This document shows, piece after piece, positions 42,001 through 48,000 of a stretch of 58,893 nucleotides of DNA. Source of the DNA: a bacterium (lineage in GTDB: Bacteria > JAMCPX01); contig JBBIVV010000013.1 in assembly GCA_037439545.1 (NCBI GenBank), forward strand, positions 1 through 58,893. Reading direction: 5' to 3'. Made by a program: the position numbers. Positions within the stretch are counted from its first letter, which is position 1; each line of letters opens with the position of its first letter.

Positions 42001-45000
42001 ACATTTTTTTCATTATCGATTTCCCTCCATTAACTAATTTATAATAAATATCTGTAGCTTTTTCAATAAAAAAATTGTATTATGAGCAAATCAATCATAT
42101 TTATAAAATGAAACTCTATTAAATTTGTAATAGTTTTTTGTCAAGCTTTTTTTTACCTGCTTTTTTGATTATGACGTGCAATGAAAAAATTGCTTGACTA
42201 ATTAAATAAAAGTATGACTTTGTAACATACCCTTTTACAAGGACGTGTAACTATGATGAAAAATATGAAGTATATAATACTGTTATTCGTAGTGCTTTTT
42301 TACGCTCCAGGCGTACAGGCGGACCAAAATGCCTGCGTTGCCTGTCACACCACCTTAAATACTGATCAGGATAAATCCGTCATGGATTGCTGGCAGCGTT
42401 CACTCCATAAACAGAACGGCATAACCTGCGACGCGTGCCACAGGGGTAATCCGGATATCGCGGCCGGCAATGTGAATCGCTTATCGAAAGAACAGTTTCT
42501 TGCCTTAAAAGCGCGCGCAATGTCTCCGGCCAAAGGGTTTATAGGCATACCCTCGTCAACGCAGATGTTTGACATGTGCGGACAGTGTCATAGTGATTCA
42601 GTCAACAGATATAAAAACAGTATTATGGGTGTTGCGTATCTCGACAAGAAAGGCGGCCCGTCCTGTACCGATTGTCATTCAGCCCATTATGTCATTATTC
42701 CCGATGTCCCGAAAACATGCGAAAAATGCCATAAAGATACGACTGGATTCGATCAGATAGACCCCATGAACGTGAACGATGCAACAGTGAGCGACCTTTC
42801 AAGAATAAGGATAAAACTTGCGGAAGAAAGGGTTAAGGGCAAAGAACCGCCGTTGTTCCCTGAAGAACTCGGCTCGTTCCAGATTGGATTTGTTGCATTC
42901 GGAGCAATCATTGTTTTGTTCATTATTGCTTACCTTATATTCATGTTGATAGAGAAAAGGAGGTAACATGGGTTTTGAAGTCATCCACAGTAAGAAGCCG
43001 TCCTACTCAATAAGTGCAGCGATCACCATTACACTGTTGTCCCTTGCATCGCTCGTCATAAGTGTACTGTTCGCCTATTTGTTTATCACAGGAAAGAGCA
43101 CAAATTTTATCATAGGTATGATGCTGTCCGCAGAATTTCTCGTTGCAGGTATTATCCTTGTGGTGTATCTGAAATATTTTCTTGTATTCAGAGAGGTCTC
43201 TGAAGACAGGAAGGAGGAACTGTTATGGTAAATCAATCCGACACCGGAAATAAGGCGGGTATCACAAGAAGAAAATTTATACTCGGTGCAATTATCGTAT
43301 CTATCGCCGGGGCCTTCGGCTCCCTTCTGTCCGTTCTCAAGGTCTTGTCCCCTTCGAAAAAGGGCAGCGGCTATGTGTCTACGATCGCGGTGGGAGATCG
43401 GCTTGTTTATGCATCGGGCAGCAATATAGGTGCTGACCTGAAAGCAAGCTCATTGAATACCGGTGACGCTGTACTCGTATATCCAAAGTCCAAGTCATCG
43501 AATCCTGCAAACCTGGTACAGCTTATCAAGCTGAACGACTCCGACTTTAAAGCACCGACAGACGTTAAATTGACGGATAAAGGGTTTGTTGCTTATAGCG
43601 CGATATGCACGCACCTTGGATGTACCGTATCATGGGTAAAAAACGAAAGTGCGCCGGACACTTCATACACGGAATGCTTCTGTCACAACAGCATATTCAA
43701 TCCGGCAACGGGTGAAAAGGTAGAAGGCGGACCCGCACCGATACCGCTTGCGCAGATAGGCATTAAGGTGACGGATAACGATACGCTCGTCTTTACGAGC
43801 GATTTTACAGGCCCGATAGGCCCGCAGGTTTAATAAAAAGGGGATTATGCGATGTTTAAATGGTTTGATGAGAGGCTTGAACTAAAAAAATTCAAAGAAA
43901 AGTTTTTATCCAAAACATTTCCGACCCACCCGACATTCCTCCTGGGTGAAATAGCCCTGTTCTCATTCGTGACACTCGTCATAACGGGCATATTTCTCGG
44001 ACTGCTCTATGAGCCGTCGTCAAAGATGGTTTCATTGTTCGGTGCAATGGTGCCGGCTGCTTATGCAAGTGTCGTAAGAATAGATCTGCTTCCCATGGGC
44101 ATGCTCATAAGGCGGATACATCACTGGAGTGCAATGATCATGATAGCTTCGATATTGGCACACCTTATGAGGGTTTTTTTCACCTCCGCTTACAGAAACC
44201 CGCGGGAGATAAACTGGTATGTGGGGCTCGGGCTCTTCGGCATTTCCTTGTTCGCTGCATTTACGGGCTATCTGCTGCCGTACAGCAATTTCTCCGTTAC
44301 AGCAACTTCCATCGGCTATTACATAGCAAAGTCGGTCCCGTGGATCGGCAACTGGATCTCAAGACTCGTTTTCGCCGGTGACTTTCCGTCCGATTCTACA
44401 GTCCCGAGGTTTTTCTTTTTACATGTCATGCTGATACCTGTCCTGCTTATCGGCACTATAGGGTTACACATGATGATCCTTATCAAGCAGAAACATACGG
44501 AACCCGCATCGAACAGGAACAAAAAAGAGGCTGAGAACGGCAAGAGGCTTATCGGCATACCCATCTGGCCTGAACAGACCGTTATCAGCATAGCATTCTT
44601 TTTCTTTCTGTTGTTTACCGTTGTTATTATATCGACGTTCATACCTTTAAATCCGATTGAGACCTACGGTCCGCCTGCGGCGGGTACTCCTGTCATGCGG
44701 CCCGACTGGTACTTCCTGGTCGTCTATGGATTTCTTAAATTGATACCCGGTAATTTAACATTCTCAATTCTCGGAGGGAAGATCACGCCGGAAACTATCG
44801 GCGGGGTTCTATTCCCCACGTTTATAATTCTCGTATTTGTACTGCTTCCCTTGCTCGATAAGGCAAAAGAGCCTCAACACTATATTACGAATCCGCTTCA
44901 CAGGCCATTCATGACGTCATTCGGCATTACAGGCGGTGTTTTCCTTACCATGTTTGTCGTTTCGGGTTACATTGACGTCCTGAAGATAGCACCAAGGACA

Positions 45001-48000
45001 ATGATCTATTATGTACTACTTGCAACAGCGGGAACGGGAATTCTATCCTACACTCTTCTCAGGTTTTATAATAAAAACAATGACGGAGGAAAAAATGTTA
45101 AACTCTAAATATACTCTTTCGCTATTCATTCTATTGATTACCGCGTCTATCCTCGGCATACAGGGCTACGCAGAGGCAAATAATTCCTGTATAAAATGCC
45201 ATACGGCCTTAACGAACAACAGTTTTGTCGGGACAAAGTCACATAGCTGGGAAGGTTCTATACATCAGGAGCATGGTGTCACCTGCGACAAATGTCACGG
45301 AGGCGACCCGGGTGCCGTAGAAGCGAACCTTGCGCACGTCGGCGTTTTCAGCTCGAGCAACGCGGACAGCAAGGTCTATTATAAAAACATTCCTTCGACC
45401 TGCGGTAAATGTCACGGCGCGGAGCTTTATAAATTTACACAGAGCTTTCACTATAAAAAACTCGAAACAACCGGTCAGGGGCCAAACTGTGTAACCTGCC
45501 ATGGCTCCATGGTTACGACAATCCTGCAACCGGATGATCTGGCAAATGTCTGCGAAAGATGCCACAACAGCAGAATAGGCGTCCTGCCTTACATTCCGCA
45601 AAAGGCAAAGACCGTCCTGTTATTGTTAAAAGAGAGCAGGTCGCTTATCCATGCGGATGAAAAGCTTTGCCGGTCGAAGGACGATCAAAAGATATTAAGT
45701 TCTGCGGAGGCAAATCTTTCTTCAGCGAGATTGGAATGGCACACATTCGATCTTGACGCAATTGTTCGGTATTTACAGGACGCAGATAATGCGCTGGAAA
45801 AACTATCTCTGCCAAAACAACCGGCCATCAAAAAGAAGCAGCCTTAGTAAACGTATTAACTATATCGGCTTACTTGTAGTGCTTGTATTCGGTCAATACG
45901 TCTTATTTATTTCCGCTTTTTTGAGCACTTGAACTATATCCGTATGCTTTTCAGCCTCTGCCCAGGTCAATGCACTGTCTCCGAACTTATCCACGACATT
46001 TATATACGCACCGTTTTCCAGCAATAACTTCACCGTGCTTATATTCCCGGTGTATGCCGCAAGCATCAACGCCGTCTGACCGTCGTCATTTTTTACATTC
46101 GGATCCATGCCTGCCTGAAGGAATAGCTTGACCACATTTGTGTTACCGGTCTTTGCGTTATTTAGAAATTGGTCGGCATTGTACTGAATGTTCGACTTTG
46201 ATAATTCTTCGCGTGCCTTTTCGGGACTTTTGGTACATCCGGAAATCAGGAGCTGTATCAAGCATAGTCCGACAGTGAGCCCCGCATAATAACGTAACAA
46301 TGAGTTTCTTTTAGACCTATTAAATTTATCTTGGTTCTGTGTAAATTTCTTATATTCCATTTTCGTTACCCCCTGTTATTGTATATTATTTGTATTCACA
46401 AAAAGGCATACATGTCAACATGATATATGCTGTTGTTTTTATCGAACATTTTTGAATTACACTATTCAACATTGGCTTGACTAAGTGTGCTCCCCTGCAA
46501 TATGATAAAAAAATCAAAGGGAGGATCTTTATGAACCAGACAGAGAAGAATTACAGTTCTTACAGGTGGATTGTTTTAGTTTTGTTCATGTTTCAGGTCA
46601 TTCTTACACAGTTTCTTTGGCTCAATTTCGCAGCGATTCAGCCGACTCTTGAGAAGCTCCTCAGTATAACCGATTTCCAGTTCGTTTTATTGCTTTCGGT
46701 CTTCAACATATTCAATCTTCTGCTTTCCCTGCCTGTCGGGGCTATTCTCGACTCAAAGGGATTTAAGTTTACCGTGGGACTGGGATCGATCATCATGGCC
46801 GTTGCTGTTCTGCTAAGGCTCCGCTCCGGCAGTTATGCATGGATACTTGCCGGCCAGATCGGTATAGCCATTGCCCAGCCCTTTATCGTGAACAGCGGTG
46901 CCAAGCTGGCATCCGTATGGTTCAATAAAAACGAGGAGGCGATTGCAAACGGACTTGCATCCATGGCAATGTTCATCGGTATGATAGCAGGCCTTGTCAT
47001 TACCCCGATTATCATCCATCACATGAATCTCTTTCACGTTATCGCGATCTACGATGCGGTAACCGTTTTCGGTTCTGTCATATTCCTGCTTTTTGCTAAA
47101 GACAACCCGGCCATCAGTACGACGATCAAACATGAAGAACAGGCGTACCATCCTATAAAGGCATACAAAGAGCTTTTCCGGATCAAAGAAATGATCGTGC
47201 TCGCCTGCATCATGTTTATCGGTGTCGGCTTTTTCAACGGCTTTACCAATTGGCTGGATAAGCTGTTGCTTCCCCAGGGCTTCACCGAGGATCAGAGCGG
47301 AATGATCGGGGGTATTCTCGTTGCAGGCGGTATTGCCGGTGCAATCGTTATTCCTCTTCTGTCGGATCTTATTAAGAAAAGAAAGCCCTTTTTGATCATA
47401 GGAACCATTTCCGCCGGTCTCTTTATGTATCCTTTAATGCAGACAAGGGACCTTACCACAGCAATCGTTCTTGCGGCAATCCTCGGATTTATGGTTATAT
47501 CCCTGCTGCCTATTCTGTTCCAAATGACGATAGAGATCGTAGGCGAGCGATTGACCGGCAGCGCCACGGGTATGCTTTGGGTATTCGGCGCAACCGGAGC
47601 AATCATCACCATCTACAGCATGGAATTCATCGGTGAGAGGACCAATGATTTCCGCAACGGTGTGTGGGTTTTGATGGTCCTGTTTGCTATTGCTTTCATT
47701 CTGTCCCTTCTGTTGAAGGAAACCTACGGCAGACAGCACAATAACGCATCGGGAAAGGAATAAACGCTCCATGCAGAATTCGCTACGGACATTTGCCGTC
47801 GTTAATCTCAAGTCAGCAAACGGAAAAACTGAAAAACTCTGGCCTGATATAAAAAAAGCCTTATCAGAGGCCATAGACAGCTTTGAGTTTGCTTTTACAA
47901 CCGGACAATATACAGCTCCGGATATGACGAAACAAGCTATCAAATCGGGATTTAGCCGCATTATATCCGTTGGCGGGGATGGGACACTGAACGAGGTCGT

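Follow-up and report, generated by a model that had tools for sequence, protein, structure and literature searches.

We suggest that five genes in the window (the whole 58,893-nucleotide stretch of bacterial DNA analysed here) quite probably encode a menaquinol:cytochrome c oxidoreductase of the Rieske/cytochrome b (bc) superfamily, from an uncharacterised bacterial clade in which an 87-aa hairpin protein would be the counterpart of the first two transmembrane (TM) helices of actinobacterial QcrA. It is proposed that the complex uses two pentahaem cytochromes in place of cytochrome c1, together with a small extra membrane subunit. The operon is a widespread and undescribed bacterial type of quinol-oxidising complex, not an archaeal import.

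Organisation of the operon

The five genes lie in a tight order on the + strand. The first encodes a membrane-anchored pentahaem cytochrome c of 237 aa (42253..42966), with five CXXCH motifs, a cleavable signal peptide and a C-terminal TM helix. It is followed by the 87-aa two-TM hairpin protein (42968..43231; Pfam DUF7318, PF24002), a Rieske [2Fe-2S] protein of 202 aa (43225..43833; Pfam Rieske), an unsplit cytochrome b of 418 aa (43852..45108; Pfam Cytochrom_B_N_2/Cytochrome_B/Cytochrom_B_C) and a second, secreted pentahaem cytochrome c of 250 aa (45095..45847), which has five CXXCH motifs and a signal peptide but no membrane anchor. Successive genes are separated by a 1-nt gap, a 7-nt overlap, an 18-nt gap and a 14-nt overlap. 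The start of the last gene is likely to be the ATG at 45095 rather than 45011, judging from a GGAGG 6 nt 5' of it and from the resulting length of 250 aa, the second pentahaem cytochromes of relatives being about 250 aa long. An AT-rich intergenic region of 239 bp (42014..42252, no strand assigned) separates the five genes from a divergent operon of monohaem c, flavoprotein, Rieske, cytochrome b and Cyc2-like genes. A promoter and terminator scan of this region gave sites no commoner than in shuffles, and therefore no promoter is assigned there. An earlier note on this DNA had given five ORFs in this order, five CXXCH in each of the two cytochromes and the 87-aa protein as a DUF7318 member; we found all five on the + strand, obtained the same motif counts and scored the small protein at 31.8 bits against a Pfam cut-off of 27. 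Its description of a core of three genes, for a small two-TM protein, a Rieske protein and a long cytochrome b, linked to multihaem cytochromes and not to a Nar enzyme, also stands.

The Rieske protein has an N-terminal twin-arginine anchor (TRRKF) and the boxes CTHLGC and CFCHNSIF, and its potential-setting residues, S..F, are present in 67 of 69 relatives. The haem-ligand histidines of cytochrome b (H90, H104, H191 and H206) are invariant in 58/58 sequences and the Qo motif is PDWY in 67/68, the best solved relative being C. glutamicum QcrB (7q21_B, E 8.9e-56). Both the Qo motif and the Rieske residues agree with the actinobacterial type and differ from haloarchaeal NarB/NarC. Kao and Hunte (2014, PMC4122944) associate PDWY with the oxidation of menaquinol and with Rieske proteins of low or mid potential, and a legend in Baymann (2012, PMC3509893) gives 200-230 mV for SF Rieske residues.

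The first pentahaem cytochrome matches Pfam Cytochrome_C7, Cytochrom_c3_2 and Paired_CXXCH, and the Cys and His of all five CXXCH are invariant in 60 of 60 aligned relatives. Its AlphaFold model (pLDDT 84.6) has a terminal helix at 207-236; a search for a solved relative gave none at E<=0.001. A signal peptide with a C-terminal anchor is the topology of cytochrome c1/f, and the protein is therefore proposed as the acceptor of the Rieske cluster. The second pentahaem cytochrome is a paralogue of the first (28% identity over 171 aa, E 7e-22), is encoded 3' of cytochrome b in most related loci and is proposed to be a periplasmic output wire.

The hairpin protein and its relationship to QcrA

The 87-aa protein has TM helices at 17-35 and 48-66 and a charged tail FREVSEDRKEELLW. 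In all 71 related bacterial loci a small gene lies just 5' of the Rieske gene, and in 71 of 72 cases the Rieske start codon is 7 nt ahead of the small-gene stop, with the Rieske ORF intact in 69. Most likely, we infer, the hairpin corresponds, as a separate protein, to the two N-terminal helices (TM1-2) that are inserted by Sec in actinobacterial QcrA, and also to the C-terminal hairpin in the protein encoded upstream of haloarchaeal narB; it would form a fourth, structural subunit. The boundary between the small gene and the Rieske gene falls exactly between the Sec-dependent and the Tat-dependent parts of QcrA. Rieske proteins of streptomycetes have been reported to be Tat substrates whose signal is internal and follows helices that have already been inserted (PMC13673990).

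Out of 18,950 NCBIfam models, 63 of the 72 small proteins picked out the same one, NF050121 (bc1_QcrA_actin), with weak matches of E 1.1e-4 at best; the next family was matched by 22/72 and Pfam QcrA_N by 6/72. The window's hairpin matches profile positions 26-97 (E 0.026), co-linear with its Rieske protein at positions 117-316 of 319 (85 bits against a cut-off of 275). Residues 60-129 of a Nonomuraea QcrA match PF24002, and hairpin topology and lengths agree with a TM1-2 counterpart. When a profile of the bacterial clade was run against 20,189 ORFs, the eight best non-self matches included four haloarchaeal upstream proteins and two QcrAs, the latter at E 0.34 and 0.48 for that database size; a third QcrA tested, from Tsukamurella, gave no match. 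By hhalign, the clade profile aligned with the haloarchaeal upstream protein on TM2 and the tail (probability 46%, P 2e-4) and with QcrA on residues 90-129 (probability 11%, P 0.003).

Taken singly, each of the sequence links from the hairpin to QcrA is weak, and TM hairpins yield compositional false matches. It is possible, if somewhat unlikely, that the 87-aa protein is instead an accessory or assembly factor peculiar to its lineage, resembling QcrA TM1-2 and DUF7318 only in composition, as one hydrophobic hairpin resembles another. In favour of this, every cross-family score is weak, and no match was obtained between the haloarchaeal profile and that of QcrA (probability 0.2%). Fused or long relatives were also missing from the searches: an exhaustive profile search of 1.84 billion representatives returned only seven proteins, all of 70-87 aa, and none of QcrA size, while a protein-atlas look-up returned unrelated small membrane proteins, below 0.9. 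However, the weak matches, drawn from three independent libraries, always fall on the same co-linear region before the Rieske anchor, and the choice of one NCBIfam model by so many small proteins points the same way. In the bacterial clade the small gene keeps its place and its translational coupling to the Rieske gene in 71/72 cases, and the haloarchaeal genes also abut or overlap by 1-4 nt in the seven loci with a PF24002-matching upstream protein.

Distribution and evolutionary relationships

A search with the cytochrome b gave 613 clusters of related proteins at E<=1e-20; more than 120 of them, the best 120 included, are 71-100% identical to it and bear bacterial labels. We also examined 71 bacterial species loci with a cytochrome b 59-87% identical to that of the window; by record title, 34 are of Nitrospirota type, 19 'delta'/Syntrophobacteraceae, three Gemmatimonadota, one Acidobacteriota, one Pseudomonadota and 13 unplaced. 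The full five-gene order is present in 53 of 72 loci, seven being cut by contig ends and 12 deviating. Many of the hosts are labelled as anaerobes, an observation that counts against our main explanation. In a six-frame search PF24002 was found in 10/13 genomes of the window's own phylum at E<=0.01 and in 7/13 over the cut-off, and among the controls in Haloferax volcanii only, all as previously reported. Of 301 genomes sampled from the phylum of one relative, a genome whose own locus (L017) is titled Nitrospirota, 21 have the small-protein profile. Only 7/72 small proteins reach the Pfam cut-off of about 27 bits, so a census from Pfam tables is blind to them. The '10 bacterial genomes' offered by the earlier note as a measure of rarity are accordingly a threshold artefact, and its view of DUF7318 as a nearly exclusively archaeal family is not supported, the gene being present in 71/71 related bacterial loci.

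In the tree, support was 98/98 for the bacterial clade, 100/98 for haloarchaea, 100/100 for actinobacteria and 100/99 for all three together against the outgroups, so that the core shares one superclade with haloarchaeal NarC. The window's cytochrome b is nested in the bacterial clade and lies outside the haloarchaeal one. The bacterial clade sits beside actinobacterial QcrB and haloarchaeal NarC in a branching order that the tree leaves unsettled (actinobacteria with haloarchaea, 83/75; haloarchaea with the bacterial clade, p-AU 0.39).

That a haloarchaeal NarB/NarC module with DUF7318 was acquired by a bacterial lineage and re-coupled to multihaem cytochromes is highly improbable and largely refuted. 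In Swiss-Prot-style searches the best matches are haloarchaeal, and the cytochrome b is indeed closer to haloarchaeal NarC (38-43% identity) than to actinobacterial QcrB (30-35%; up to 38% over shorter, partial matches), both by tblastn against plasmid records. H. volcanii alone of 14 controls carries PF24002, and a sister relationship of haloarchaea and the bacterial clade is allowed by the p-AU value above. The likeness to NarB/NarC as closest relatives, however, holds only within a small curated database, the bacterial relatives being at 59-87%. The bacterial clade spans at least five phylum labels with internal branches deeper than the haloarchaeal clade, and haloarchaeal sequences group apart from it in a clade of their own. 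Nor is an 'archaeal-style' core supported: haloarchaea have PDWF for PDWY, G..F for S..F and an upstream protein of 191-214 aa for one of 87 aa, and the RR motif, sought by the same pattern, is absent from 4 of 5 NarB sequences checked. The Nar-linked upstream proteins score 17-20.5 bits on PF24002, below both the window's protein and the cut-off, and the haloarchaeal Rieske domain is nearer to actinobacterial QcrA (40-42% identity) than to the window's Rieske protein (28-36%). In published trees the haloarchaeal complex has a bacterial origin (PMC3509893, PMC4122944), and according to Baymann et al. (2012, PMC3509893) the Nar-linked complex was itself imported from Bacteria.

Proposed function

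Beside these observations on gene content, conservation, motifs and tree position, we infer an electron path, its direction and its acceptor. From what is known of the family, menaquinol would be oxidised at the Qo site (PDWY). The Tat-inserted Rieske cluster would take one electron and hand it to the anchored pentahaem cytochrome, a stand-in for cytochrome c1/QcrC, from which it would reach the secreted one. The other electron would travel through both b haems (bL and bH) as far as the Qi site; through this proposed Q cycle a proton gradient would be built. In this organism the probable end point is its only haem-copper enzyme that depends on cytochrome c, or else acceptors outside the cell, reached via outer-membrane cytochromes. 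The genome encodes one COX1-family subunit, beside a dihaem FixO-like cytochrome c, and one bd oxidase; searches of it for NrfA and for a real molybdoenzyme found neither, the single Molybdopterin match reported earlier being confirmed as one weak match of 45.5 bits.

The complex might instead run in reverse, electrons from extracellular Fe(II) passing via a Cyc2-like outer-membrane cytochrome-porin, the pentahaem cytochromes and the Rieske/cytochrome b pair uphill into the menaquinone pool, though we consider this quite unlikely. Of the 71 loci, eight have a Cyc2-like gene no more than 4 kb away (N-terminal PSFARQTG..C..CHT motif, about 460 aa, terminal F); in five it comes immediately upstream in the same orientation, accompanied by a monohaem cytochrome c. 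One is also near the operon in the window, where the divergent operon's copy has 28% identity (E 1e-27) to a Syntrophobacteraceae-labelled one. Acidithiobacillus is known to have bc complexes that work in reverse (cited in PMC4122944). Against this, 63/71 loci are without a Cyc2-like gene in the flank examined, and Kao and Hunte link PDWY to forward menaquinol oxidation and APWY to reverse operation (PMC4122944). It is the window's other cytochrome b (37757-39082) that carries APWY, and its operon also contains the Cyc2-like gene and a flavoprotein of NAD(P) type.

Comparison with known systems

The haloarchaeal NarB/NarC locus has the same order of upstream membrane protein, Rieske and cytochrome b, with abutting or overlapping genes, and the C-terminal hairpin and acidic tail of its upstream protein resemble the 87-aa protein. 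That protein, however, has four TM helices rather than two, a 70-aa ORF follows cytochrome b, and c-type cytochromes are absent; the operon described here in turn is without narGH.

The actinobacterial bcc complex (QcrC-QcrA-QcrB; solved e.g. as 7q21, 6adq and 7rh5) shares the unsplit cytochrome b, PDWY and S..F, and menaquinol-type chemistry is expected in common; the window's hairpin and Rieske proteins jointly cover the QcrA profile. Nevertheless, QcrA is one 3-TM chain where the operon here has two genes, dihaem QcrC stands against two pentahaem cytochromes, and the operon's cytochrome b has 418 aa against about 540-650 aa. The window's proteins fall far under the cut-offs of the actinobacterial NCBIfam models (293 of 500 bits and 85 of 275 bits), its cytochrome b belongs to a clade separate from QcrB, and no aa3 oxidase genes are adjacent.

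Mooser et al. reportedly described a four-subunit bc complex from Thermus thermophilus, a member of the related Deinococcus-Thermus group, in which FbcX is said to be a small membrane subunit, encoded directly before the Rieske gene, of a menaquinol-oxidising complex. The likeness to the operon would be a small membrane subunit gene in that position; small ORFs 5' of the Rieske genes on two Deinococcus plasmids have no similarity to the 87-aa family.

In Methanoperedens nitroreducens, Arshad et al. (2015, PMC4683180) describe an 'unusual Rieske/cytb complex' whose cluster includes two pentahaem cytochromes of c type as well as hypothetical proteins of small size. That cluster differs in its third cytochrome c, its eight genes and its archaeal host with Nar. 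By description only, and not by sequence, it is likened to the operon of the window, and it was proposed to pass menaquinol electrons to the membrane's outer side (PMC4683180).

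Gene organisation of the module

The operon consists of five closely packed genes on the plus strand, an arrangement put forward in the earlier note and borne out here by our reading of the open reading frames (ORFs) and by matches to Pfam and NCBIfam, both of which are consistent with the gene assignments. The first gene (42253-42966) encodes a pentahaem cytochrome c of 237 aa, whose five CXXCH motifs are accompanied by a signal peptide and a C-terminal transmembrane (TM) helix, the latter followed by EKRR. Next come an 87-aa protein of family DUF7318 (PF24002; 42968-43231), which has hydrophobic helices at residues 17-35 and 48-66 and a charged tail, a Rieske protein of 202 aa (43225-43833; TRRKF, CTHLGC and CFCHNSIF) and, immediately after the Rieske gene, a cytochrome b of 418 aa (43852-45108; Pfam Cytochrome_B and Cytochrom_B_N_2). 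The fifth gene, for a second pentahaem cytochrome c with five CXXCH motifs, ends at 45847 and likely starts at the ATG at 45095, which has GGAGG 6 nt upstream and gives a protein of 250 aa, as in its relatives. A scan of the sequence for promoters and terminators returned no more sites than shuffled sequence.

Downstream of the operon lie an ankyrin-repeat protein whose N-terminal part has a hydrophobic segment (45893-46360, minus strand) and an MFS transporter (46477-47763, plus strand). A protein of about 407-413 aa with 9-10 TM helices is also found 3' of the module in its closest relatives (loci L002-L004, L007 and L008).

Distribution of the module in bacteria

The earlier note had taken the core for an archaeal module of NarB/NarC type and had regarded DUF7318 as nearly confined to Archaea; our analysis supports neither view. 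When the cytochrome b was compared with 5.8 billion protein clusters, 613 matched at E ≤ 1e-20, and the best 120 of these are 71-100% identical to it and labelled, where a label is given, as Nitrospirota/Nitrospirae, Acidobacteria, Deltaproteobacteria or vent metagenome. Scanning one genome per species with the same protein gave 71 loci at 59-87% identity, compared with 38-43% to haloarchaeal NarC, so that the nearest relatives are bacterial. Their labels are Nitrospirota-type (34), 'delta' or Syntrophobacteraceae (19), Gemmatimonadota (3), Acidobacteriota (1) and Pseudomonadota (1), with 13 unplaced.

A profile built from 20 close homologues of the 87-aa protein matches, in every one of the 71 loci, an ORF just 5' of the Rieske gene (72 matches, E 7.5e-50 to 4.3e-13), and the stop codon of the small gene lies 7 nt past the Rieske start codon in 71 of the 72 cases, with an intact Rieske ORF following in 69. 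By strict automatic criteria 53 of 72 cases have the complete five-gene order; seven are ended by contig edges and 12 deviate, at least six of them by the lack of the downstream cytochrome and some through frame or ORF-calling problems. When the phylum of genome G013, whose own locus (L017) is labelled Nitrospirota, was sampled with the clade profile, 21 of 301 genomes had the small gene.

Some loci depart from the common plan in their own ways. Bacterium BMS3Bbin14 (L013, 10-6814) carries the entire module twice in tandem on one contig, with the same profile score for both small proteins, which may reflect a recent duplication or an assembly repeat. Six Nitrospirae-labelled loci (L058, L061, L063, L064, L065 and L067), which form a subclade with 98% tree support, have no downstream pentahaem gene; five of them (L063 is shortened upstream) have a conserved ten-TM protein of 424-428 aa and a protein of 262-296 aa 5' of the gene for the anchored pentahaem cytochrome.

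The view of DUF7318 as archaeal can be traced to the family model. On PF24002 the 87-aa protein scores 31.8 bits, above the gathering cut-off of 27 bits, and 67 of the 72 small proteins of the bacterial clade match the model at E ≤ 1, of which just seven reach about 27 bits. The lineage studied here happens to be the portion of the bacterial family that passes the cut-off, and a census drawn from Pfam tables was misleading because most bacterial members score below it. The count within the phylum was reproduced, with DUF7318 in 10 of 13 genomes (seven above the cut-off) and, among the controls, in Haloferax volcanii only. The proteins encoded 5' of narB in haloarchaea score 17.0-20.5 bits over their C-terminal 75 residues in seven of the eight loci fetched; in the eighth (L083) the upstream protein has no PF24002 match. 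The archaeal framing of the module is a database artefact. Our literature searches found no paper that mentions DUF7318.

Phylogeny of cytochrome b

A maximum-likelihood tree of cytochrome b (LG+C20+F+G4, careful search) was inferred from 38 sequences, comprising 19 representatives of the bacterial clade (67 sequences thinned at 80% identity), eight haloarchaeal NarC, seven actinobacterial QcrB and four outgroups. L090 and L093, for which no clean ORF could be defined, and L050, which has a frame problem, were left out, and the sample does not extend to the chromosomal complexes of Thermus and Deinococcus, Methanoperedens or the archaeal loci above the Pfam cut-off. In Streptomyces, Kocuria, Kitasatospora and Streptantibioticus the plasmid matches are qcrB paralogues that stand alone, with no qcrA, and they were used for the cytochrome b tree only. 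Support is high for the bacterial clade (98/98), the haloarchaea (100/98), the actinobacteria (100/100) and the three joined together (100/99). The cytochrome b of the window is nested among Nitrospirota-labelled sequences, outside the haloarchaeal NarC clade.

Within the joined group the actinobacterial and haloarchaeal sequences pair with support of 83/75, and the alternative that pairs haloarchaea with the bacterial clade is not rejected (lnL difference 1.65, p-AU 0.39). For the Rieske domain, NarB is 40-42% identical to actinobacterial QcrA and 28-36% to the window protein, whose best plasmid-borne matches are bacterial. The haloarchaeal Nar-linked complex is grouped with those of Actinobacteria and Deinococcus-Thermus, and derived from Bacteria, both by Baymann et al. 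2012 (PMC3509893) and by Kao and Hunte 2014 (PMC4122944).

Diagnostic residues and predicted activity

The module belongs by its sequence to the Rieske/cytochrome b (bc) superfamily. The haem-ligand histidines of cytochrome b, in two pairs on helices B and D (H90, H104, H191 and H206), are invariant in all 58 aligned sequences, and the Qo motif (P-x-W-Y) in the C-terminal half reads PDWY both in the window and in 67 of 68 members of the clade. Among 69 clade Rieske proteins, CTHLGC is present in 66, C-x-C-H in all and a twin-arginine motif in 66. At the two positions used as markers of Rieske potential by Baymann et al. 2012 (PMC3509893), 67 of the 69 and two actinobacterial QcrAs have S..F. 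According to Kao and Hunte 2014 (PMC4122944), PDWY goes with menaquinol oxidation and a Rieske protein of low or mid potential, and APWY with operation in reverse. The complex is likely to act as a quinol:cytochrome c oxidoreductase with a Q cycle. Scores on the NCBIfam models are below the actinobacterial cut-offs for both QcrA (85.1 bits against 275) and QcrB (292.8 against 500).

One pentahaem protein is a paralogue of the other; they share 28% identity across 171 aa (E 7e-22). With its signal peptide and C-terminal anchor the first of them has the topology of cytochrome c1 or f, and its structural model (pLDDT 84.6) places the terminal helix at 207-236. It would take electrons from the Rieske cluster, and the secreted cytochrome would pass them onward. 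In phmmer searches of solved structures neither cytochrome found anything better than E 0.02, and Foldseek with the model of the first found nothing at E ≤ 0.001; its weaker rows were generic multihaem proteins such as HAO, MtrA and NrfA/B/H.

The small hairpin and helices 1-2 of QcrA

The most interesting testable point of the module is its candidate split-QcrA hairpin. On the NCBIfam model of actinobacterial QcrA (NF050121, 319 positions) the Rieske protein aligns at positions 117-316, and the 87-aa protein at positions 26-97 with a weak E value of 0.026. Among the 72 small proteins, 63 match this model, again weakly (best E 1.1e-4), 22 match the family that comes next, and six match Pfam QcrA_N (PF19297). 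Residues 60-129 of the Nonomuraea QcrA match PF24002 in turn, with 13.5 bits. When the clade profile was run against 20,189 stop-to-stop ORFs from the six-frame genome and the outgroup loci, the top eight non-self matches included four of the haloarchaeal upstream proteins, with two QcrAs and two ORFs from the genome making up the rest. Individually, two of three QcrAs matched the clade profile (E 0.34-0.48); the third, from Tsukamurella, did not.

Profile-profile comparison with hhalign aligned the clade profile with TM2 and the tail of the haloarchaeal upstream protein (REVSEDR/HVEVAERR; probability 46%, P 2e-4), and with QcrA residues 90-129 (probability 11%, P 0.003). The haloarchaeal and QcrA profiles did not match each other (0.2%), which, like the absent match to the Tsukamurella QcrA, speaks against a relation of the hairpin to QcrA. 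An exhaustive profile search with the 20-sequence hairpin alignment recovered seven representatives only, of 70-87 aa, with no archaeal DUF7318 and no QcrA among them, and this too counts against the relation. A protein-atlas look-up of the small protein gave only unrelated small membrane proteins, all below 0.9.

In actinobacterial QcrA the TM helices lie at about 59-77, 90-116 and 161-189 and the RR at 153-161, so the gene split separates the two early helices from the Tat-dependent anchor; the Rieske protein of the window has a single TM helix, and the hairpin is encoded by a separate gene. In a 2026 review (PMC13673990), streptomycete Rieske proteins are described as Tat substrates with an internal signal behind helices already inserted. 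On balance we consider it moderately probable that the hairpin is equivalent to TM1-2 of QcrA, which would offer a simple and testable origin for the three-helix QcrA of Actinobacteria.

A word-based search, itself weak evidence, found no relatives of the Rieske protein that are longer and fused. An apparent hairpin-Rieske fusion in L052 (a 326-aa ORF) loses its frame inside the Rieske domain, and L032 has similar frame trouble; both are probable assembly indels and not natural fusions. Two Deinococcus plasmids (L091, 2028-4287; L092, 2065-4287) also have an ORF of 82-88 aa before the Rieske gene, overlapping it in L092, but no similarity between this ORF and the 87-aa family could be detected. 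According to Pfam, cytochrome b in L092 has a cytochrome c domain at its C-terminus; its counterpart in L091 is similar in length.

Possible electron transfer partners and the divergent operon

The genome, 98.3% complete, encodes one COX1-family subunit beside a dihaem FixO-like cytochrome c, and one cydAB; no NrfA and no real molybdoenzyme were found in it. Because a COX1-family, cytochrome c-dependent enzyme is encoded, a quinol:cytochrome c reductase running forward would have a terminal enzyme to feed.

The module may also be linked to extracellular electron exchange, in either direction. In eight of the 71 loci a gene for a Cyc2-like protein (about 460 aa, PSFARQTG..C..CHT motif, terminal F) lies within 4 kb. 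In five of them, with Syntrophobacteraceae or Deltaproteobacteria labels (L034, L035, L038, L039 and L040, about 380-2240), the genes directly 5' of the module on the same strand encode a monohaem cytochrome c of 116 aa and a Cyc2-like protein with a length of about 460-480 aa, and in L018, L029 and L036 the Cyc2-like gene is on the other strand. The Cyc2-like protein of the window is 28% identical (E 1e-27) to the one labelled Syntrophobacteraceae. The name is one that we take over from the earlier note and from sequence features (cf. Keffer et al.).

In the window the Cyc2-like gene belongs to a divergent operon of seven minus-strand genes (34949-42013). These encode a monohaem cytochrome c (41648-42013), a GltD-like FAD/NAD(P) and Fe-S flavoprotein of 652 aa (39598-41556), a Rieske protein (39084-39611), a cytochrome b of 441 aa with an APWY Qo motif and ExtP/ExtQ-like halves (37757-39082), a multihaem cytochrome of 348 aa (36867-37913), a DoxX-like protein (36429-36830) and the Cyc2-like protein of 475 aa (34949-36376). 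In its make-up the operon is similar to the anammox R/b-2/R/b-3 type with an NAD(P) module.

A broader joint reading, which we consider unlikely as a whole, would combine these observations. The 87-aa protein would be the unfused helices 1-2 of QcrA, the dual Sec and Tat insertion of QcrA would stem from the fusion of neighbouring, translationally coupled genes, and the hairpin would be an ancestral fourth subunit of the group formed by the actinobacterial, haloarchaeal and clade complexes. The two divergent operons would also be a matched pair around the Cyc2-like outer-membrane cytochrome, with the APWY complex and NAD(P)-type flavoprotein working uphill and the PDWY complex with its pentahaem wires downhill. 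If this were true, a small uncultured lineage would possess a full connection, usable in both directions, from extracellular iron to the quinone pool.

Comparison with known systems

Rieske/cytochrome b complexes are central energy converters whose accessory subunits and output cytochromes vary by lineage. Among them the module stands as a real and conserved bacterial variant that has so far gone undescribed. Literature searches on Rieske proteins with multihaem cytochromes in Nitrospirota, Thermodesulfovibrionia/Thermodesulfovibrio and Syntrophobacter found no paper on the five-gene type, and those under the name FbcX nothing relevant. To judge from labels, many uncultured bacteria from sediment, hot-spring and vent habitats carry the type defined here, and the impression of DUF7318 as archaeal is corrected. 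In Nitrospirota-type and Syntrophobacteraceae-labelled organisms the module is a candidate link from quinol to multihaem cytochromes in extracellular or microaerobic electron transfer.

From haloarchaeal NarB/NarC the module differs in its cytochrome b, which falls outside the NarC clade, and in its motifs, PDWY and CFCHNSIF in place of PDWF (all eight NarC) and G..F or G..Y (CPCH[FA]GK[FY] in five NarB checked, the final residue F in four and Y in one). A molybdoenzyme gene lies downstream in all eight haloarchaeal loci, whereas the window has neither narG nor narH and the genome a single, weak Molybdopterin match. The earlier proposal that the module is coupled to multihaem cytochromes in place of a Nar molybdoenzyme holds. 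The haloarchaeal loci also have a conserved ORF of about 63-72 aa, of no Pfam family, between narC and narG (L073, 8340-8552; L074, L077 and L083-L086), which is lacking in L078.

The closest description in print is that of the Methanoperedens Rieske/cytochrome b cluster by Arshad et al. 2015 (PMC4683180), which includes two pentahaem cytochromes as well as hypothetical proteins, a likeness drawn from the description alone. In pathogenic mycobacteria the actinobacterial bcc complex has drawn attention as a target for antibiotics (PMC8616580). Actinobacterial QcrABC combines a three-TM QcrA in one chain with a dihaem QcrC, whereas in the module the Rieske protein and the hairpin have separate genes and each cytochrome has five haems.
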